From positions 544,001 to 608,000 of the forward strand of contig JBBRLQ010000001.1 in NCBI GenBank assembly GCA_038231275.1: DNA of 64,000 nucleotides. The letters run 5' to 3'. Of the stretch, positions 6,127-23,121 are shown in pieces. Each line of letters opens with the position of its first letter. The first letter of the stretch is position 1. The notes under the pieces were generated by a model. That model saw only the letters and a list, made by a program, of their open reading frames with translations, had not been told where the DNA came from and did not search any database. The stretch comes from Polyangiales bacterium. GTDB taxonomy: Bacteria; Myxococcota_A; Polyangia; Polyangiales; Polyangiaceae. A program made the position numbers and the translations under genes.

Positions 6127-7479
6127 ATGAGGCGTGCGGTCGTTGCGGTCGGGCTTGGGATGTGGGGCGCGGCGTGCACCTCTAGTCTCCCTGCGCAGCT
6201 CGTCACTGACGCGGGCACGCCGTCGACGGTCGACGCCGGCGCCGACGCGGACGCCGCAGCATGCGCGCCGCAGGCGTTCACCGACACGCTGCGCCCCAAG
6301 CGTGACGCGTGCACCTTCGCGGCGGGCGCCACGGCGGCGGACACGCTCGGCCTGACCGAAGACGCGCGAAAGGCGATCCCGATCAAGCACGTCATCGTGC
6401 TGATGAAGGAGAACCGCTCCTTCGATCACATCCTCGGCCAGCTCTCCAAGTCCGGCCAGGCCGACGCCGAGCCCGTGCCGGCGACCTGGGCCAGCGTCGA
6501 CAAGAACGGCGTGTCGGTCCCTCCTTCGCACGCCGCCACCACGTGCGCGAAGGCCGATCCGCCGCACCAGTGGACGAACATGCACGCCATGGTGAACGGC
6601 GGAAAGATGGACGGCTTCGTCACCAACGGGACCCTGTCCGATCCGCCGACGGACGGGCGCTTCACGATGGAGTTCTTGGACGCGACCGACATTCCTTTCT
6701 ACTACTGGCTCGCGAATACGTTCGCGGTCGCCGACCACCATTTTCCGTCCGTGCTCTCTGGAACGTGGGCGAACCGCGATTACCTCGTCGCGGCGACGTC
6801 GCACGGTACGAAGAACACGACGAGCGATCCGATGCTCAACGGCGTGCCGATCCTCTTCGACGCGCTCGAGCAGGCCGGCGTCACGTGGGAGGTGTACACC
6901 GACGATCTCGCGCCGCTCGAGTTCTCGGTGGCGTGGGGGAAGCGCAAGGTCTGGAAGCCGGTGCAGAAGCTCCTCGACGATCTCGCCGCCGGCACGCTGC
7001 CGTCCGTCGCGTTCGTCGACTCGACGAGCGATTTCACGCCGCCGGTGAGGGACGAGCATCCGCCGGCCGACGTGCAGGTCGGTGAGGCGTGGACGCGATC
7101 CATCTACGACGCGACCGTGAAGAGCCCGCTGTGGCCGACGACCGCGCTCTTCTACACGTACGACGAAGCGGGCGGCTTCGGCGATCACGTGCCGCCGCCC
7201 AAGAGCTGCGCGCCGAGCGCGGACCAGGCGGAGTTCACGGAGCTCGGCGTTCGCGTGCCGCTCGTCGTGGTGTCGCCGTTTGCGCGCCGTCACTTCGTCT
7301 CGCACGTCGTGCACGAGCACACGTCGATCCTCCGGTTCATCGAGGCGCTCTACGGACTGCCGGCGCTCACGGCGCGCGACGCGAACAGCGACGCGATGCT
7401 CGACATGTTCGATTTCGGCTGCGCGAGCACGGCGCCGCTCACCGATCCGCCGGTCGCCGGCACCGGGCGCTGCCCGTAG
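6127..7479 (+). CDS. Phospholipase C / phosphoesterase family lipoprotein
   Basis: IKHVIVLMKENRSFDH, TYDEAGGFGDHVPPP and GVRVPLVVVSPF motifs; lipobox GAAC. Confidence 0.92.
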   Translation: MRRAVVAVGLGMWGAACTSSLPAQLVTDAGTPSTVDAGADADAAACAPQAFTDTLRPKRDACTFAAGATAADTLGLTEDARKAIPIKHVIVLMKENRSFDHILGQLSKSGQADAEPVPATWASVDKNGVSVPPSHAATTCAKADPPHQWTNMHAMVNGGKMDGFVTNGTLSDPPTDGRFTMEFLDATDIPFYYWLANTFAVADHHFPSVLSGTWANRDYLVAATSHGTKNTTSDPMLNGVPILFDALEQAGVTWEVYTDDLAPLEFSVAWGKRKVWKPVQKLLDDLAAGTLPSVAFVDSTSDFTPPVRDEHPPADVQVGEAWTRSIYDATVKSPLWPTTALFYTYDEAGGFGDHVPPPKSCAPSADQAEFTELGVRVPLVVVSPFARRHFVSHVVHEHTSILRFIEALYGLPALTARDANSDAMLDMFDFGCASTAPLTDPPVAGTGRCP

Positions 7480-7635
7480 CGCCGTAGCCCCACGAGCCTC
7501 CGCCTGCATGTGCGAGGGAAACCGCATATCTCAAACCCCCTTGTTTTCGAGCTGATCGCCGAGATCGGCAACATTCGGCGGAACTATTCCCCGGCGTCCC
7601 TGTCCTATCCGCTCGAGAGGACGGGACAGGGAAAA

Positions 7636-9648
7636 ATGAACAAGCCGGCGCTCACGTTTTGCATCTATCAGGGGTCTACTTTGGTTCGTCGTGAGACGGT
7701 CCGTCAGGACATCGTCAAGATCGGCAAGGACCCCAAGAGCCACCTGCGCGTCGACTGCGACGTCGCGGCGCGGATGCACGCGGTCCTCGAGGTGAACGGC
7801 ACCGGCGACCTCACGCTGATCGATCTCGGCAACGAGCCGGGCACGCAGGTGAACGGTCAGCGCATCAACAAGTGCCACCTCCGCGTCGGCGACAAGGTGC
7901 AGATCGGCAGCTCGACGTTCGTCCTCGAGTCGGTCACCGACGCGCCGGCCACGAGCGACGTGCAGGTCCCCGCCTCGGCCGCGCCGCAAGCGGCTGCGAG
8001 CCCCGCGCCCCTTTTCAACGCGCCGCTCTTCGCGCCGCTGGCCCCCCAAAACCCGTTCCTCGCGCCGATGGTCCACGTCGCCGCGTCTCCGGTCCTCGCC
8101 GTCGAGCAGCTCGAGGGGGACGAAGGCTACGCGATGATCAAGAGCGGCCCGTCGCCGCACGCCGAGGAGGTCGAGCTCACGCACGTGTCGGCCATCGAGG
8201 TCATGATCAAGTGGGACACCAACGTCCTCCATGTCGCGCACCTCTCGCCGATCCGCTCCTTCTTCGTGGGCGAGCGCGACGTGAAGGGCCAGGCCTGTGA
8301 CTTCCTCCTCCCCGCCGACGTCCTCGGCGCGGCGCGTACTCCGGTCGTCGTCGAGCGCGCGGGTGGCGCGTGGCTCGTCGTGCCCCGCGGCGCGACCGGC
8401 ACCATCGCAATGCCGAATGAGGCGAGCGTCCCGGTGGCCGACATGATCGCCACTGGCCGCGCGCGTCCGTCGCTCGAGGTGAGCGGCGCGCACGAGGTCG
8501 AGCTCCTCCCCGGCACGCGCGCCAAGATCACGCTGCCGAACAGCGAGATCTCGTTCGACGTGAACGCAGTCAACGCCGGCAAGAAGGTCGCCGCCGGCTT
8601 CCTCGCGTCGATGGAAGCGAGCGCGTACCGCCACGTCGGGCTCTCGCTCTTCGCGCACCTCGGCATCGTCGCGTCGCTCGCCTTCTTCATGCCGCGCATG
8701 AGCGCCGACGACGCGGAGGGCATCGACCGCGAGTACATGTCGCACATGCTCCACGCCGCCGACGCGAACGCGCTCGTCGAGCAGGAGAAGCTCGACGAGC
8801 AGAAGACCGCCGACGATCTGGCGAGCGGCGGCGAGGGCAAGCGCGCGGAAAAGGAAGAGGGCCAGATGGGCAAGGACACCGCCCAGCCCGCGAACAAGCA
8901 CTGGTCGCTCGCCGGCCCCGCCGACACGAAGGACCCGAAGCTCGCGCGCGAGAAGGCGCTCCGTGAGGCGGCCGACTGGGGAATGATTGGTCTCCTCGCG
9001 ATGGATCGCGGCGCCGTCAACGCGCCGACCGCGGCGTGGGGCGACGACACGGCCATCGGCAAGGACGCGGCGAACCACCTCGGCCAGATGTGGGGCGCGG
9101 AAGCGGGTGACGCGTGGGGCCTCGGCGGCCTCGGCCTCTCCGGAGCCGGCGAGGGCGGCGGCGGCATCTACAAGGGCATCGGCCTCGACAAGATCGGCAC
9201 GCTCGGCCACGGCGGCGGCTGCATCGAGATGCCCGGCAAGCCCTGCGGCATCGGCTTCGGCCCCGGCGGCGAGGGCATCGGCCACGGCAGCAAGCTCCCG
9301 CGCGATCACACGCCCAAGGCGCTCCCGATTCGCGAGAGCAAGGTCGAGGTCAACGGCCGCCTCCCGCCCGAGGTCATCCAGCGCATCGTGCGCCAGAACT
9401 TCGGCCGCTTCCGCAACTGCTACGAGTCGAGCCTTCGTACGAACCCGAGCCTCACCGGCCGCGTCGCCGTGAAATTCGTGATCGGCCGTGACGGCAGCGT
9501 GATGATGGCGAGCGACGGCGGCTCGGACCTCCCGGATCAGGGCGTCGTGCAGTGCGTGACGCGCGGCTTCCAGAACCTGTCGTTCCCGTCCCCCGAGGGC
9601 GGCGTCGTCACCGTCGTCTACCCGCTCGTCTTCAGCCCCGCGGGCTGA
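7636..9648 (+). CDS. FHA + TM + AgmX/PglI (TonB-like) C-terminal domain protein, GltG-like gliding-motility paralog
   Basis: N-terminal FHA (KIGK...RMHA...DLG...GTQVNG), a TM helix, a Gly-rich linker and C-terminal GRLPPEVIQRIVRQNFGRFRNCYE...FPSPEGG. Confidence 0.85.
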   Translation: MNKPALTFCIYQGSTLVRRETVRQDIVKIGKDPKSHLRVDCDVAARMHAVLEVNGTGDLTLIDLGNEPGTQVNGQRINKCHLRVGDKVQIGSSTFVLESVTDAPATSDVQVPASAAPQAAASPAPLFNAPLFAPLAPQNPFLAPMVHVAASPVLAVEQLEGDEGYAMIKSGPSPHAEEVELTHVSAIEVMIKWDTNVLHVAHLSPIRSFFVGERDVKGQACDFLLPADVLGAARTPVVVERAGGAWLVVPRGATGTIAMPNEASVPVADMIATGRARPSLEVSGAHEVELLPGTRAKITLPNSEISFDVNAVNAGKKVAAGFLASMEASAYRHVGLSLFAHLGIVASLAFFMPRMSADDAEGIDREYMSHMLHAADANALVEQEKLDEQKTADDLASGGEGKRAEKEEGQMGKDTAQPANKHWSLAGPADTKDPKLAREKALREAADWGMIGLLAMDRGAVNAPTAAWGDDTAIGKDAANHLGQMWGAEAGDAWGLGGLGLSGAGEGGGGIYKGIGLDKIGTLGHGGGCIEMPGKPCGIGFGPGGEGIGHGSKLPRDHTPKALPIRESKVEVNGRLPPEVIQRIVRQNFGRFRNCYESSLRTNPSLTGRVAVKFVIGRDGSVMMASDGGSDLPDQGVVQCVTRGFQNLSFPSPEGGVVTVVYPLVFSPAG

Positions 9649-9737
9649 GGTCGGCTCCCGCGAGACCTGCCGCGACCTGCGGCGTGGACAATCGGCCCTC
9701 CCGGCGTCATCCTTGGCGTCCGCGGAGGGCCGTCGCC

Positions 9738-10169
9738 ATGTCTCAGCAAGGAAGCCGCTTCAAGTCGTTCGAGGAGTTCTGGCCGTACTACGTCAAGGAG
9801 CACAGCAAGAAGTCGACGCGCGTGCTGCACTTCATCGGCACGACCGCGGCGATGGCCTGCGTCGCCGGCGGCCTCCTCACGAAGCGACGCTGGCTCCTCG
9901 CCGTCGCGCCGTTCGCGGGCTACGGCCCCGCGTGGGTCAGCCACTTCTTCATCGAAAAGAACCGCCCCGCCACGTTCACGTACCCGCTCTGGAGCCTCAA
10001 GGCGGATCTCGTCATGTGGAGCAAGATGGCGATGGGGAAGATGGACGCCGAGGTCCAGCGCGTCCTCGCCGCGGACGAGGCCGTGAAGGACGCGTCCGAG
10101 AAGGGCGAGCGTGAGGCGCGTGAGGATGGCCCGGTTCGCGTCGACGCCCCGTCCGGCACGGTGAACTGA
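9738..10169 (+). CDS. DUF962/Mpo1-like membrane protein
   Basis: FEEFWPYYVKEH...LHFIGT...AWVSHFFIEKNRPATF. Confidence 0.88.
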   Translation: MSQQGSRFKSFEEFWPYYVKEHSKKSTRVLHFIGTTAAMACVAGGLLTKRRWLLAVAPFAGYGPAWVSHFFIEKNRPATFTYPLWSLKADLVMWSKMAMGKMDAEVQRVLAADEAVKDASEKGEREAREDGPVRVDAPSGTVN

Positions 10170-16301: not shown

Positions 16302-17375
16302 TCAACCTGCAGCGTAACCATTCTGAACGTACGGCGTCCCATCCGGCTCGCGCGGCGTCCAGCGAAGGCGCAGCTCGCCGGTGCCAGCGCGAAGGGGAGT
16401 CAGGCCCAGCTGCAGCGCGATCTTCGGCTCCACGCCCTCCATCGTGAGGAAGGGCCCGTAGTCCTTCCACACCGGAGCGCTCGCGGCGGGCACTCCCCCG
16501 AGCGTGGCCACGAACCAGCGTGCGCTACCCTCCGTTCGCGTCGTGAGCTCCGCGGTGACCCCCTGTGCCGACACGCTTCTTGCCAGCGTCACGAGCTTGG
16601 TGTCGAGCGCGCCGCCGCGGATCGCCACCTCCAGCGCGCCCGAGGCGCCTCCGATGCTCTCGACCATCGCGTCGTACTCTCCCGGACCGGCCGCGAGGTG
16701 CAGGCGGATCGTCTGCTGGTCGTGTGCGATTTCGTTTCCGAGTCGCGAACCCAGCGCGCGGAGGACGGGACGCCCGGCGATCGGCTGCCGCGACACGGGA
16801 GGCGGCTGCATGAAGCGGAGGCGCTGCACCCCCGGCGCATTCGGGTCGATGTTATCCGGATACAGGCTCCGTTCGTGCAGTCCGACGAGCGCGCCGAGCT
16901 CGACGAGCGCGGCCTCCGGGTCCAGCCCCTCGCCGCGCGCCCGCGTGAAGAGGCGCTTCACGTCGCGCCATCCGAAGTTGCCGACGCACAACGAGTCCCA
17001 GCGACGAGGCTGACCGGCGACTTCCCGCGCCGCGCGATCGATGGCGGCGCCATCACGGTCGCTGCAGAAAATATCGACCTCGGCGCCGTCGTTGTAGAGG
17101 CGCGCGTCCAGTACGTCACTGTCGAAAATGGAAGTGACGAGGACCCGCGTCCTCAACGCAGACGACAGGCTGATCGCGGCATCCCAGATGGGGATGGGAC
17201 TGTAGATGGAGGCCCAGCCCTTCGAGCCCTTGTCCGCCGCAACGATGACGTCGTGGTCCGCCGGTGCGCCTGCTTCGGCCTCGCGGTACCCGCGGGCGAG
17301 CGCGAGCTCTCGAAGCGCGCGGGTAACCTTGGCGACGGTGCTTCGCGCGTGGACGTGCCGGAATTTCGACCCCAT
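16302..17375 (-). CDS. Hypothetical protein (357 aa)
   Basis: Likely start MGSKFRHVH at 17375; globular-looking sequence; no family recognised. Confidence 0.7.
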   Translation of the reverse strand: MGSKFRHVHARSTVAKVTRALRELALARGYREAEAGAPADHDVIVAADKGSKGWASIYSPIPIWDAAISLSSALRTRVLVTSIFDSDVLDARLYNDGAEVDIFCSDRDGAAIDRAAREVAGQPRRWDSLCVGNFGWRDVKRLFTRARGEGLDPEAALVELGALVGLHERSLYPDNIDPNAPGVQRLRFMQPPPVSRQPIAGRPVLRALGSRLGNEIAHDQQTIRLHLAAGPGEYDAMVESIGGASGALEVAIRGGALDTKLVTLARSVSAQGVTAELTTRTEGSARWFVATLGGVPAASAPVWKDYGPFLTMEGVEPKIALQLGLTPLRAGTGELRLRWTPREPDGTPYVQNGYAAG

Positions 17376-17477
17376 GGTGCGCGAGCGTAGCGCGAAGCGA
17401 CGCGCCTCCGTACGTGAGCCGACCCTGCTGACCGACGCCGGCGTGACGTAACGGCACAGATCCTCCGCACCGCCTTT

Positions 17478-17554
17478 TGAAGAATGGTTGCAGGCTCGCG
17501 AGGTCATCATGTCGCCGCGGAGGGCCGCGGACGCAATCACGATCGTCCACGATT
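17478..17554 (+). repeat. Degenerate direct repeat, copy 2
   Basis: Shares three colinear blocks with 16182-16299. Confidence 0.75.
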
Positions 17555-17722
17555 GACGGAAGGCTGCTCCGGCACGCGACGCTGATCTTCTCGGTCGCCA
17601 CCGTTCGTACTCCGAGTGGGAATCATGGGGAGCCCATGCCACGGCGCCGCGTCGCGCGGTTCGGCACGCGCGGAAAATTACCCTCCCGGCCGACGTCGAC
17701 CGTGACGCGAGCGCGCCGCGTA

Positions 17723-17762
17723 GGGCACGGAGATTGCGTAAAGGGTTTGGCACGGGCGCCGC
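17723..17762 (+). promoter_or_regulatory. Two tandem candidate sigma54 promoters
   Basis: GGGCACGGAGATTGC (17723-17737) and TGGCACGGGCGCCGC (17748-17762), both GG-N10-GC, upstream of 17832. Confidence 0.4.
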
Positions 17763-17831
17763 GGCCGATCTCTCGGAGCGCGCGTCGTCGTCCAACCCGG
17801 ACACCCCGTCCGAGAAAGAATAAGGCTCCTC

Positions 17832-18533
17832 ATGGTCAGCGCCCGACTCCTCTTCGTTGCAGCATCCGCGTTCGCGATCCAACTGGCGGCGTGCGGCGGC
17901 AACAGCGATGGCACCAGCCTCACGAGGGGGAGCTCCTCTTCGTCGGGCGGGTCTTCGTCGGGCGGGTCTTCGTCGGGCGGGACCTCCTCGGGATCGGTGC
18001 CGCCGAGCACGCAAAGCGACGGCGGCGGCGTCGCGCCGAGCAGCGACGCGGGATCGACCGCCGACACGGCGCCGACGACCGACCTCTGCACGCCGTACAT
18101 CGGCAAGTGGCTGGCGACGATCGATCCGGGCGCCGTTGCGACGGGGACGGATACCGACCCTCTGGGCGGAAGCATTCCGTTCAGCGGCACCATCGACTTC
18201 ACGTTCGTGCACGACGACGCGGATCTCCCGAACATCCTCGATTTCTCGGGTACCTCGACGATCAAGGCCGCCGGTCAGACGATTACGCAGCCCATCGTGC
18301 CGGCAAAGTCGCCCACGGGCGATCCCAAGGACAGCACGTGCGAAGCGGGCGTTCTGCACTTCCTCGGAGAGGCGAACGTCTCGGGCATCGGCGTCGTCCT
18401 CTTCACGGTGGAAGGGCACCTCGACACGTCAGTGACACCGACCGTCGGGCTGGGGACCTTCACGATGAACACGAAGGACGACAACGGCGCCGCGCTCTCG
18501 GGCAAGGGCACCCTCCACATGGTGCGCCAGTAA
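17832..18533 (+). CDS. Hypothetical lipoprotein with Ser/Gly linker
   Basis: Lipobox LAAC; the SSSGG linker is encoded by a 15-bp tandem repeat TCTTCGTCGGGCGGG. Confidence 0.8.
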   Translation: MVSARLLFVAASAFAIQLAACGGNSDGTSLTRGSSSSSGGSSSGGSSSGGTSSGSVPPSTQSDGGGVAPSSDAGSTADTAPTTDLCTPYIGKWLATIDPGAVATGTDTDPLGGSIPFSGTIDFTFVHDDADLPNILDFSGTSTIKAAGQTITQPIVPAKSPTGDPKDSTCEAGVLHFLGEANVSGIGVVLFTVEGHLDTSVTPTVGLGTFTMNTKDDNGAALSGKGTLHMVRQ

Positions 18534-18593
18534 CGCACGCCGCGGCGGGGGCCCATGGCCCTCGTAAGAAAAATTCGCTGTGACTCGCCGACG

Positions 18594-18640
18594 CGCGCCG
18601 ACGCTCTCCGCGCAGGTGGGGCGTCGGCGCGTTCGTTTTG
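18594..18640 (+). terminator. Rho-independent terminator
   Basis: CGCGCCGACGCTC...GGGCGTCGGCGCG stem followed by TTCGTTTTG. Confidence 0.55.
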
Positions 18641-18812
18641 TGATGCGGCGGTCGCGATCGCGTGCGGGGGGATCCACCACTGTGATCCGTCCGACCAGGG
18701 TCGACGATTGCGATGGGTGACGCGGCGTCGGCGCGTGCGATTGGAAAATTCGTCGTGCGCCGCTCGCACGTGTTGACGCCCGTAGCTCCGTGGGCTCCAT
18801 TGCGCCGCGAAG

Positions 18813-19139
18813 ATGCAGACACCGATCGCCTCCGTCGTCCTCTCCAGCGCGCCGTCCGACAAGGGCCTCGACCTGAGCGAAGAGGACGTGGCGTCCTGGA
18901 TCGCCTTCGCGCGCGAGTGCATCGGCGAGCTTTTTCCGGAGGTCATCGTCACGACGAAGCCGACCGCGGGCACCGAGATCGTCTGCGCGGACCCCTCCTG
19001 GCGCGACGAGCTGCGCGAGCGCGTCAGCGACGCGTGGCACGCGTGGTGTCTCGGCGAGCGGGTCGCCGCAAAGGGGAACGCAGACGCAGACGGGGTGGCG
19101 CGGGACGAGACCGACGCGGTCGTCCGCGCCGCGGGCTGA
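18813..19139 (+). CDS. Hypothetical protein (108 aa)
   Basis: High-GC3 ORF with protein-like composition. Confidence 0.55.
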   Translation: MQTPIASVVLSSAPSDKGLDLSEEDVASWIAFARECIGELFPEVIVTTKPTAGTEIVCADPSWRDELRERVSDAWHAWCLGERVAAKGNADADGVARDETDAVVRAAG

Positions 19140-19147
19140 CGACGCAG

Positions 19148-19579
19148 TCACGACGACGACGAGCCTGGCCCTCGAGGACTCCGCCGAAGCACCGACGCGA
19201 CGAATGAACCGTACGTGACGGCGGCGACTAGGAGTCCGATCGCACCGCCCGCCACCGTCGCGAGCACGCTCCCTGCTCCCAACGATCCAAGCTCCACTCC
19301 GATCCCAACCGCGAGCGCGGTGCCGAGCGCCACACTGATCCATCGCGCCACGCGATGAAAGAGCGCGACGCCGAGGAGCACGAACGTGACCACCGCCGCC
19401 GCGATCGCTGCCCACGGCGGCGCGCCCGCCAGCCACGCCATCACCAGCCCTGCGATGGCCACCCCGAGGTTGAGAATCATCGCGAGCTCCATTCCGGACT
19501 CGGACAGCGGCGCGTCCGGCGCGGACTCGGCTGCGAGATGAAGGCGGAACGCGAGGCGCTGGAGGGGAGAACGAAACAC
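19148..19579 (-). CDS. Small multi-pass membrane protein (start may be 19492)
   Basis: About four hydrophobic segments. Confidence 0.6.
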   Translation of the reverse strand: MFRSPLQRLAFRLHLAAESAPDAPLSESGMELAMILNLGVAIAGLVMAWLAGAPPWAAIAAAVVTFVLLGVALFHRVARWISVALGTALAVGIGVELGSLGAGSVLATVAGGAIGLLVAAVTYGSFVASVLRRSPRGPGSSSS

Positions 19580-19593
19580 CGCCCCAGTCTATG

Positions 19594-20277
19594 TCACGTG
19601 TCCCCGAGCACGAACCACAGCATCGCGTGCGCGGTCACCGGCGCGACGAGGGAGCGATCGGGGCCGCGGCCGCGCGCGATGCCGAACGCGAGGCCGAGGG
19701 CCGCCTTCATCGTGAAGCCAACGAAGCTGAAGTCGCGGTGCGACGCCGCGAAGACGATCGACGTGATGGCGAGCGCGCCGCAGAAACCGAGCTTCGCCTC
19801 GAGCGCGGGCTGCATGTAGCCGCGGTAAATCGACTCCTCCGTCGACGCCGCGCAGATGCCGACGAGGACGAAGTCGAGGCGTGTACGGAGGCCGCCTTGG
19901 AATGGCGCAAGCAGCGCCTCACCGAGGTGCATGCCCATCCCGACGAGGACCACGAGGATGATCGCCCAAAGTGCGAAGAATGCCACCAGACCGCGGCCGA
20001 CGTCGCGAGCACCGTCGAACCGCCAGCCGATCGCGCGCGGAGTGGTGCGGCCGACGGCGAAGAGGCCGAGCCCCAACACGACGCTCCACATCGCGACGAT
20101 CATCAAGACGCCGATCATGAGCTGCGCGTTCGAGCCGCTGAACCCGCGATCGCCCGGCGTAACGATGTGACGTCCGATCACCGAGAGGACGACGTACGTA
20201 CAAAGCAGGTGCCACGGCACGAGGAGGAGCGCGTGGACGATGCGCGACGTGCTGCCGAGCGGGAAGCGGGCCATCAC
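19594..20277 (-). CDS. CPBP/Abi (CAAX protease-like) intramembrane protease
   Basis: EESIYRGY, FAASH and AHAM motifs; multi-TM. Confidence 0.85.
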   Translation of the reverse strand: MMARFPLGSTSRIVHALLLVPWHLLCTYVVLSVIGRHIVTPGDRGFSGSNAQLMIGVLMIVAMWSVVLGLGLFAVGRTTPRAIGWRFDGARDVGRGLVAFFALWAIILVVLVGMGMHLGEALLAPFQGGLRTRLDFVLVGICAASTEESIYRGYMQPALEAKLGFCGALAITSIVFAASHRDFSFVGFTMKAALGLAFGIARGRGPDRSLVAPVTAHAMLWFVLGDT

Positions 20278-20347
20278 CGAGGTGTACGACGCTCCGCGCG
20301 GCCCGTCCTTGGGAAGCGAAGTTCGCGGTCAGCGCGGCGTGACGCGA

Positions 20348-20566
20348 TCAGCCGAGGAGCGCGAGGATCTCGTCCTCGCTCGTCGGGAAGCGGTTCGATT
20401 GCAGCTTCGAGAAGACGAGCCGCTCGTCACGGAAGACCTCGAACGATCCCCGATCGCCGGGCACGAGCTCGGCGGCGACGCCCTTGTCGGACTTGATCTT
20501 GGCCGCCAACCTGGCAGCCCGGGGCAAGTACCCTCAGGCGGAGCAGTATTCGATGCGAATCTTCAT
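20348..20566 (-). CDS. Rdx/SelW-family selenoprotein (CxxU), 72 aa
   Basis: ATG 20566: MKIRIEYCSA-[TGA 20536-20534]-GYLPRAARLAAKIKSDKGVAAELVPGDRGSFEVFRDERLVFSKLQSNRFPTSEDEILALLG*. Rdx motifs (IEYCxxU, GxFEV, FSK...RFP) continue past the TGA. Confidence 0.9.
20501..20519 (-). promoter_or_regulatory. Bacterial SECIS-like hairpin
   Basis: GGCUGCCA-GGU-UGGCGGCC begins at nt 15 after the UGA; apical GG(U) lies 23-25 nt after the UGA. Confidence 0.7.
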
Positions 20567-20666
20567 CTCCCTAACGCTTAGTGCTCGGCGCGCCGGTTCG
20601 CAAGCGCCGGCCGGTTAGGAGCCTCCTAGTCAGCGCGCCCCACACGCGCTACACACTGGCCGCGCC

Positions 20667-21629
20667 ATGGTGGACGACGCGCTCCTGACCGCGAATCTCG
20701 GCAACACGCTCGACGCCACGGATTTGCCGGCGCTCGGCGCAAAATACGAGGGCAAGGTCCGGGACAACTACACGACCAAGGACGGCCGGCGCTTCATCGT
20801 CGTGACCGATCGCATCAGCGCGTTCGATCGCGTCCTCGGCACGATCCCGTTCAAGGGGCAGGTCTTGAACCGCCTCGCCGCGTGGTGGTTTGAGGAGACG
20901 AAGGTCGTGGCGCCGAACCACCTCCTTCGCACGCCCGATCCCAACGTGCTCGAGTGCGTCGAGTGCACGCCGATCCTGGCCGAGATGGTGGTGCGCGCGT
21001 ACGTGACGGGCTCCACGTCGACGAGCATCTGGACGCACTACGAGGGCGGCGCCCGCGTCTTTTGCGGGCACCGCTTGCCGGACGGCCTGAAGAAGAACCA
21101 AAAGCTCCCCGCGCCGATCCTCACGCCGGCGACCAAGGCGCCGAAGGGCGAGCACGACATCTCCGGCTCGCGCGAAGAGATCCTCGCGACCGGCAACGTC
21201 ACCGCCGCCGACTTCGACGCGGCCGCGGCCATCGCGATGCGCCTGTTCGACGCCGGCCAGAAGATTTGCAGCGCGCGCGGGCTCATCCTCGTCGACACCA
21301 AGTACGAGATGGGCAAGACCAAGGACGGAAGGGTCGTCGTCATCGACGAGATCCACACGCCCGACTCGTCGCGCTTCTGGATGGCGGACTCCTACACGGC
21401 CCGCTTCGAGCGGGCCGAAGATCCCGAGCCGCTCGACAAGGACTACGTGCGGCGTCATTTCACCAAGCTCGGCTACCGCGGAGACGGGGCGCCGCCGCCC
21501 TTGCCCGATGACGTGCGCGTGGGCGCGGCGAAGCGGTACATCGAAGCGTTCGAGAAGATCACCGGCACCACGTTCACGCCCGACACCGCGCCGCCGATCG
21601 CGCGGATCGCCCGGAATTTAGGCCTCTAG
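20667..21629 (+). CDS. purC: SAICAR synthetase
   Basis: [26 protein letters not shown] and [13 protein letters not shown] motifs. Confidence 0.96.
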
Positions 21630-21638
21630 GAGCACCCC

Positions 21639-21884
21639 ATGAAAGCCACCGTCCTCGTTCGCCTCAAGCCCGAAGTCCTCGACCCGCAGGGAGACGCGGT
21701 GCGCCGCGCGCTCGGCAAGCTCGGGTTCGAAGGCGTGAAGGGCGTGCGCGTCGGCAAGCTGATCGAGATCGAGCTGCCGGACTCGGCGGGCGCCGTGAAG
21801 GGGGAGCTCGAGAAGCGCCTCGCGAAGATGGCGGATGAGATGCTCGCGAATCCGGTCGTCGAGGACTTCGAGATTCGCCTCTAG
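21639..21884 (+). CDS. purS: FGAM synthase subunit PurS
   Basis: LKPEVLDPQG...VRVGK...LANPVVEDF; AGGAG RBS. Confidence 0.96.
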   Translation: MKATVLVRLKPEVLDPQGDAVRRALGKLGFEGVKGVRVGKLIEIELPDSAGAVKGELEKRLAKMADEMLANPVVEDFEIRL

Positions 21885-21906
21885 CCACCTCCCGTAAGCG
21901 TGCAGT

Positions 21907-23121
21907 CTACATGCTCATCGGCGTGGGCATGAAGAGCAGGCCGAAGATGAGGAGCGTGACGATCGCGATCGCCGCGCGCCCGACGCCGAGCGGAGCCGCA
22001 CCGGTCGGCGGGTGATCCAGGAGCGGGCTCGGGCGGAGCGCTCCGCTGCGGCGCTCCATCACGAGGAGCATCCCGAGGCCCACGAACCAGGCAATCCAGA
22101 GGAGCGCGCTGAAGTGCTCGCGGCCGTAGCTGGCGAGAAGGATGAGGCCCAGCGTCGCGATGGCGCGGGTGCGGGTGCCGAGCTCGTTGTCGTCGGTGCG
22201 ATCCGAGCGCTGCTTTCCCAGCGCGCCGAGGATGGCGAGCATCTCGAACCAGACGAGCCAGAAGACCGAGTTGCCGATGTGGGTCCCGAGGCGGTAGATG
22301 CCGAGGCCTGCGCGGAGATCGCGCAGCATGTAGCCGCCGAGGCTGACGAAGAAGAACGCGAGCATCGCGCGATGCACGACGCGCGCGAAGCGATCCTGCC
22401 GCGTGCCGAAGAGCGCGTACGCGACGTGACCGCCGTCGAGCTGGCCGACGGGGACCAGGTTGATCATCGTGACGAACATGCCGGCCCACGCGGCGAAGGC
22501 GACCGGGTGGAGCATGAGCGTCATCCCCTCCGGCGGCGAGGTCACAGCGAGGTGATCGAGGACGCGGAGGGCGATCGACTCGCCGAGCTCGACCGAGCCC
22601 TTCTCGCCGAGGGTCGAGACCGAAACGAGCGTCGAGTGCGCGGCGCCCCAGAAATACATTGGGATCGCGAAGCAGAGGCCCGCGAGCGGTCCCGACGCGC
22701 CGATGTCGAGGAGCGCCGCGCGCGTGGGGATGCTGCCGCGCATGCGGATGACGGCGCCCATCGTCCCGAACGGCGAGAGCATCGGGATGGGGATGAAATA
22801 GGGGAGCGACGCGTCGACCTTGTGGATGCGCGCGGTGATGAAGTGCCCGAGCTCGTGCGCGACCAGGATGGTGAGGAGCGCGCCGGCGAACTGGAGGCCG
22901 TGCACTACCGCCTCGGGGACCAAGAACGCGCGCAAGATGCCGAGCCGGCCCGGCGCGCTGATCGCGGATTGTGCGGCGTTGTCGCTGAGCACCGCGGTGG
23001 AGAAGACGCTCGCGACCGTGACGAGGAAGAGGACGAGGTTGGTGCGCCACTCGACCGGCGGCAGCTCGCCCGAGGGCGGCGGCGCGCTGGAGTGGCGCTC
23101 AGGAGGGGGAACGGAGGGCAT
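21907..23121 (-). CDS. Site-2 protease (peptidase M50)
   Basis: HELGH, GPLAG and NLVPVGQLDGGH motifs; multi-TM; start overlaps the upstream stop region. Confidence 0.9.
   Translation of the reverse strand: MPSVPPPERHSSAPPPSGELPPVEWRTNLVLFLVTVASVFSTAVLSDNAAQSAISAPGRLGILRAFLVPEAVVHGLQFAGALLTILVAHELGHFITARIHKVDASLPYFIPIPMLSPFGTMGAVIRMRGSIPTRAALLDIGASGPLAGLCFAIPMYFWGAAHSTLVSVSTLGEKGSVELGESIALRVLDHLAVTSPPEGMTLMLHPVAFAAWAGMFVTMINLVPVGQLDGGHVAYALFGTRQDRFARVVHRAMLAFFFVSLGGYMLRDLRAGLGIYRLGTHIGNSVFWLVWFEMLAILGALGKQRSDRTDDNELGTRTRAIATLGLILLASYGREHFSALLWIAWFVGLGMLLVMERRSGALRPSPLLDHPPTGAAPLGVGRAAIAIVTLLIFGLLFMPTPMSM

Follow-up and report, generated by a model that had tools for sequence, protein, structure and literature searches.

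A probable SelW-like selenoprotein gene with a bacterial-type SECIS hairpin, mis-called as a stub, in an uncultured Polyangiales bacterium

The Polyangiales bacterium represented by GenBank assembly GCA_038231275.1 very probably carries a genuine SelW-like selenoprotein gene with a bacterial-type SECIS hairpin, in an organism that possesses a full selenocysteine (Sec) pathway; we place the probability of this reading at roughly 95%, on the basis of sequence comparisons. The gene lies in a stretch of 64,000 nucleotides (contig JBBRLQ010000001.1, positions 544,001 to 608,000; hereafter the window, to which the coordinates refer), and the source assembly comprises 9.28 Mb in 164 contigs, with a completeness of 94% and a contamination of 3.3%. 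The predicted product is a 72-residue SelW-like (Rdx) protein of the thioredoxin fold with the active site C8-x-x-U11, in which residue 11 would be Sec decoded from an in-frame UGA codon. The features of the gene are as follows:

20348..20566, minus strand: predicted selenoprotein gene of the SelW-like (Rdx) family, with 72 codons followed by the stop codon TGA at 20350-20348.
20534..20545, minus strand: CxxU redox motif, codons 8-11 TGC TCC GCC TGA, with the putative Sec codon UGA at 20536-20534.
20501..20519, minus strand: candidate SECIS hairpin, an 8-bp stem (20519-20512 with 20508-20501) and a GGU apical loop (20511-20509).

The ATG start codon occupies 20566-20564 on the minus strand, the in-frame TGA is codon 11, and in the read-through translation the frame stays open past codon 11 as far as the terminal TGA; the product begins M-K-I-R-I-E-Y-C-S-A-U-G-Y, which gives the motif C8-S-A-U11. 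The initial annotation had described a minus-strand frame with TGA at codon 11 that was missed by the open reading frame (ORF) track, and both points hold: the plain ORF list contains only a truncated 59-aa frame with a TTG start (20348..20527). In a collection of 5.8 billion proteins, all four matches are likewise stubs, 52-60 aa long and starting downstream of the UGA; JGI names one of them a 'selT/selW/selH-like putative selenoprotein'. The gene is called short by gene finders because the internal UGA is read as a stop, and the main value of the present finding lies in annotation, the gene having been mis-called as a 59-residue stub without the active site, as have its relatives in the database. 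It is the only Rdx-family match in the genome of the source organism, the selenoproteome of which gains one entry. Immediately upstream, a GGGAG run (window 20567-20575) abuts the ATG without a spacer; a normally spaced Shine-Dalgarno sequence is not apparent ahead of the gene, and the three closest orthologues differ in this region and have no normally spaced Shine-Dalgarno sequence in common.

The read-through protein is a member of the Rdx/SelW family with a thioredoxin-like fold. It matches Pfam PF10262 (Rdx) at 60.8 bits (cut-off 22.6; E = 1.4e-16) over residues 2-64, in a match that runs across the UGA, and NCBIfam TIGR02174 (CXXU_selWTH) at 52.3 bits (cut-off 34.2). Its score against the equivalog model NF041051 (SelTWH_Campy) is 79.6 bits, below the cut-off of 88, which leaves the gene outside that narrower model. 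Sequence matches in the PDB include MIEN1 (2ljk; 4e-8), mouse SelW (2npb; 2e-3), and the bacterial SelW-related proteins 3dex and 2fa8. The AlphaFold2 model, for which a 33-row alignment of homologues served as input, has a pLDDT of 95.4 and a pTM of 0.82, and predicts the element order β-α-β-β-β-α: a strand at residues 3-8 (β1), a helix at 14-28 (α1), strands at 32-37, 42-46, and 49-53, a short helix at 54-57, and a helix at 64-71, with the CxxU motif between β1 and α1. The best Foldseek match of this model is SelW-related 2fa8 (TMq 0.89, rmsd 1.2 Å), and SelW-related proteins, MIEN1, and SelW make up the top 23 matches, with thioredoxins next. Profile and structure matches therefore agree on the Rdx/SelW membership that had been claimed from the sequence, and the alignment of homologues confirms that U11 stands at the second Cys position of the CxxC/CxxU motif. 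Judging by motif, fold, and family, the protein would most likely function as a small thiol-dependent oxidoreductase or antioxidant, and would most likely cycle between a selenol/thiol form and a C8-U11 selenenylsulfide.

In a scan that took one genome for each species, 25 loci were found; they carry the labels Planctomycetota, Myxococcota, Acidobacteriota, Chloroflexota, Gemmatimonadota, Proteobacteria, Verrucomicrobia, and Actinomycetota. TGA is found at codon 11 in 24 of these 25 loci (the exception, L021, has TGC), in a sample that is biased to one clade because the peptide MKIRIEYC was a search pattern; all 25 loci start with the same eight residues. A second search drew on 41 genomes, the source genome among them, from the same genus, family, and order, and gave matches at 13 places in 12 genomes. 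At ten of these places, among them those in both same-genus genomes (74-75% identity), the motif position is taken by a single in-frame TGA, and the other three, which are more distant, have Cys there. The same TGA codon is thereby kept in 33 other sequences across both searches. In the 33-row protein alignment, from which L025 (the frame of which ran to 103 codons) and L054 (start not determined) were left out, C8 and position 11 are invariant. Past the UGA, Y13, A17, G40, and K54 are also invariant, and P15, F42, S53, and P61 reach 90% conservation or more. Three same-genus orthologues have 72 codons each, with no indels, and dN/dS values of 0.34, 0.44, and 0.56 over codons 12-72, which point to purifying selection past the UGA; decay of the gene after the TGA is not seen in these orthologues.

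Although gene callers predict exactly the truncated form, and the database matches consist of stubs alone, it is very improbable that the UGA is a true stop and that the gene yields a 59-residue protein from the TTG at 20527 or is a decaying pseudogene. The ten codons before the UGA, including that of C8, are conserved in 33 homologues and form strand β1 of a confidently predicted fold, and the Pfam match spans the UGA. In addition, the stop at this codon in the 33 other sequences is always TGA and no other, and the same-genus genomes contain no frameshifts, with dN/dS in the range 0.34-0.56. In the second search, a family-level relative (L056; G007:C9:14677-14835) was found to encode the motif S-Q-A-C, a single-thiol variant with Ser in place of Cys and Cys in place of Sec. 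One genome of the same order (G034) encodes two TGA-containing SelW-like genes (L050 and L058).

An assembly or sequencing error that turned TGC or TGT into TGA, in the gene for an ordinary CxxC protein, is less probable still. Such an error could be suspected from the closest named homologue, L021 (L021:3001-3210; 62% identity), from a MAG labelled Myxococcales, which has TGC and the motif CAPC, and from the Cys of the three more distant relatives; however, both same-genus genomes have TGA. A Logan contig of run X1 has no differences from the window across 20200-20800, although X1 may be the source sample and the contig is not independent for this reason. In another study, a 168-nt contig present in runs X2 and X3 spans 20513-20691, with two substitutions and an 11-nt intergenic deletion, none of them at the TGA, and a contig of run X4 covers 20485-20565 with eight differences, none of which is listed at 20534-20536. 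These X2, X3, and X4 contigs, all from that other study, thus cover the codon and differ from the window elsewhere, with no difference listed at the TGA.

The hairpin GGCUGCCA-GGU-UGGCGGCC occupies 20519-20501; 14 nt separate the UGA from the stem, and 22 nt separate it from the loop. The local 27-nt fold has a free energy of -14.5 kcal/mol. For the consensus bacterial SECIS element, the legend of Figure 2 in PMC13188914 specifies an apical loop of 3-9 nt in which the first base, the second, or both are G, a stem of 4-16 bp, and a UGA-loop distance of 16-37 nt with a minimum free energy of -7.5 kcal/mol or lower (PMC13188914). With a loop of 3 nt, a stem of 8 bp, a loop that starts with GG, a distance of 22 nt, and the free energy given above, the hairpin lies within all four constraints of the consensus model (bSECISearch). 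Both its presence, with the GGU loop, and its proposed identity as a bacterial SECIS with an apical G had been put forward in the initial annotation; the former is as described, and the latter is supported by the fit to the consensus model and by covariation.

Covariation was used instead of stability because stability is uninformative in a genome with 69% GC: the 66-nt fold has z = -0.94 relative to shuffles, and its stability is equalled or exceeded by 40 of 200 shuffles. The alignment used for this purpose is ungapped and spans the TGA together with the preceding 9 nt and the following 57 nt in 34 sequences (the window, 24 database loci, and nine places from related genomes), with the Cys forms left out. 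Across the 8-bp stem, 85.3% of cells are paired, compared with 67.3 ± 1.7% in shuffles. As a caveat, four of the eight stem pairs arise automatically from the GCN alanine codons at residues 17, 18, 21, and 22. The covariation score is 0.527, vs. 0.197 in shuffles, and none of 500 shuffles equals the observed value for pairing or covariation. When the 3′ partners are slid by 1-3 columns as a control, 27-52% of cells pair. Double-sided changes are found in five of the eight stem pairs (42 cells), and the column pairs 30-42 and 33-39, in which third codon positions face each other (wobble-wobble), are each paired in 32 of the 34 sequences. RNAalifold, run without a given structure, predicts the inner five pairs, and the first loop base is G in all 34 sequences. 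For the four Cys-type homologues (L021, L055, and L057 with CxxC; L056 with SxxC), the local folding energies are -7.8 to -9.4 kcal/mol, which falls within the span of the 34 Sec forms, -6.0 to -16.5 kcal/mol.

Residues 18 and 21 of helix α1, where they are not Ala/Ala, change jointly, and their codons stay complementary (columns 31-32 with 40-41; window 20515-20514 with 20506-20505). Residue pairs with complementary codons include Ala/Ala, Thr/Val, Arg/Arg, and Ile/Met-type pairs, and the Thr/Val codon pair is present in L023, L028, and L029. The pairing of the RNA thus appears to constrain the choice of amino acids at these two residues. The 34-sequence alignment provides a clean illustration of RNA structure constraining coding sequence, a principle that is established for bacterial SECIS elements.

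At the position of the SECIS, L021 has a hairpin of 7 bp with a GGUCU loop (-9.4 kcal/mol), and since this hairpin stands at the same place, it fits a recent change from Sec to Cys; L021 may therefore be a recent Sec-to-Cys conversion that retains a fossil SECIS. A broader and tentative proposal, which we consider rather doubtful, is that the short clade with MKIRIEYCxxU is an ancestrally Sec-containing SelW-like lineage, with the SECIS written so tightly into helix α1 that RNA pairing would dictate the amino-acid pairs at residues 18/21, and with L021 as the recent convert.

The organism encodes the complete Sec pathway. The genes selA (contig 13; 535.1 bits), selB (adjoining selA; 254.8 bits), and selD (contig 64; 382.8 bits) all score above curated cut-offs and have no internal stops. 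A tRNA-Sec gene (selC) lies ~1.3 kb from selA, with 66.3 bits against a gathering score of 47 and the anticodon TCA by ARAGORN. The SelB protein (625 aa) has an EF-Tu GTPase domain, a domain 2, a SelB β-barrel, and a C-terminal SelB-wing_3 winged helix; the SelA domain of SelA and the AIRS domains of SelD were also identified. The genes for tRNA-Sec, SelA, and SelB are clustered within 4 kb on the minus strand of contig 13 of the source genome (G000; ~6159-10057), and selD is on a separate contig of 15 kb. The GC contents of contigs 13 and 64, 0.683 and 0.692, agree with that of the genome, 0.692 ± 0.011. Among relatives, selA was found in all four examined that carry the TGA form, and a complete genome of one relative that lacks the gene gave no selA match, a comparison that illustrates but does not test the association, the five genomes having been chosen by presence or absence of the gene. 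The recoding of UGA to Sec in this organism, which had first been offered as an inference, is thus in keeping with positive searches for selA, selB, selC, and selD, all four of which are present and intact.

Based on established bacterial Sec biology, UGA codon 11 would be decoded as Sec in the following way. SelA would make Sec-tRNA(Sec) from Ser-tRNA(Sec) using selenophosphate supplied by SelD. The hairpin, located 14 nt past the UGA within the sequence that encodes helix α1, would act as a bacterial SECIS, to which the C-terminal winged-helix domain of SelB would bind, bringing Sec-tRNA(Sec) to the ribosome.

Low-level misinsertion of Cys or Trp at Sec codons under selenium limitation is known in other systems. 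That the UGA is read here outside the Sec pathway, for instance with insertion of Trp, Gly, or Cys under an altered genetic code or by near-cognate suppression, is highly improbable: nothing specific favors it, and it is opposed by the complete Sec machinery, by the covarying SECIS-type hairpin after the UGA, by the location of the codon at the redox-active residue, where non-Sec homologues have Cys, and by the use of TGA as a stop, both at the end of this gene and as the commonest codon that closes long frames. TGA closes 3610 of 5741 open frames of at least 400 codons in the first 20 contigs (a crude count, with spurious frames included), and because it ends this gene and closes most long frames, it is not reassigned genome-wide. 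Insertion of Sec by way of the SECIS is by far the preferred reading of codon 11.

The gene is an additional member of a common selenoprotein family that has been known since 2004-2005, and nothing new is learned from it on Sec decoding or on the SelW family. The original reports of the SelW-like family and of bSECISearch are said to be those of Kryukov and Gladyshev in 2004 and of Zhang and Gladyshev in 2005, and the Rdx-family paper is reportedly that of Dikiy and colleagues in 2007; surveys of prokaryotic selenoproteomes by Zhang, Gladyshev, and colleagues reportedly catalogue bacterial SelW-like selenoproteins. As in those selenoproteins, the predicted protein is a small single domain with a near-N-terminal CxxU, and the SECIS lies right after the UGA and has an apical G. 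There is no substantive difference between them, except that the present copy is unannotated and comes from an uncultured sediment bacterium with a 9.3-Mb genome of 69% GC.

The solved SelW-related proteins 2fa8 (Agrobacterium), 3dex (Streptomyces), 2ojl (Bordetella), 2p0g (Vibrio), and 2obk and 2oka (Pseudomonas), all of which we take to carry CxxC, have the same fold as the window protein (TMq 0.82-0.89, rmsd 1.2-1.9 Å over ~73 columns; sequence E 3e-5 to 0.06). By their PDB titles and identities of 25-32%, they constitute a more distant branch of ~100 residues, whereas the window protein has 72 residues and would contain Sec. Mammalian SelW (2npb) and MIEN1 (2ljk) also have the Rdx thioredoxin-like fold (TMq 0.71-0.73), and their redox motif occupies the corresponding position.

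The Sargasso Sea study describes SelW-like proteins as the most abundant selenoprotein family in those data, with 48 genes and the motif CXXU, and gives their function as unclear but presumed to be redox-related (PMC1088965). The same study describes the bacterial SECIS of this family as having a G in a small apical loop (PMC1088965). Another survey records the family in 10 bacterial genomes; among organisms that use Sec, Cys homologues were very few (PMC1794560). Eukaryotic SelW has a SECIS of another type, located in the 3′ untranslated region according to a figure legend (PMC1088965, Figure 7), whereas the candidate SECIS in the window is inside the coding region. As is proposed for the SelW-like family in bacteria as a whole, the protein would act as a thiol/selenol oxidoreductase.

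The gene is flanked by two genes with Pfam matches:

20667-21629, plus strand: purC, SAICAR synthetase (PF01259, 212.9 bits), divergent, with 100 nt between the start codons.
19594-20277, minus strand: Rce1-like CPBP intramembrane protease gene (PF02517, 53.7 bits), 70 nt downstream.

The layout had been correctly described at the outset, with the gene divergent from purC and 70 nt upstream of a CPBP gene on the same strand; the accompanying suggestion of co-transcription with the CPBP gene finds no comparative support, as the three closest relatives have different downstream genes. By tblastn, purC adjoins the orthologue in both same-genus genomes (L047 and L048) as well, and the CPBP query was not found in the other 37 loci; the ORFs downstream of the orthologue differ among L047, L048, and L049. 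Linkage to the CPBP gene is unsupported because that gene is not conserved in relatives, and a functional pair of the two was considered and dropped, the CPBP gene not having been found downstream in L047, L048, or L049, or in the other loci searched. No promoter-like site was detected in 19400-20900, and no terminator-like site was detected on the minus strand of the 70-nt gap, the single such site in 19400-20900 being on the plus strand. A look through public sequencing runs listed no RNA run that contains the gene. Co-transcription with the CPBP gene is possible; the promoter of the selW-like gene itself probably lies in the 100-nt interval that it shares with purC.

Three further long ORFs are located nearby on the minus strand, at 16302-18419 (705 aa), 18429-19436 (335 aa), and 21881-23050 (389 aa). 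None of the three has a Pfam match at E ≤ 0.001, and at a genomic GC content of 69% some may be spurious. In the region between purC and the selW-like gene, 11 nt are absent at window position 20615 in contigs of three runs of another study, and this difference is an indel polymorphism in the shared 100-nt purC-selW promoter region.
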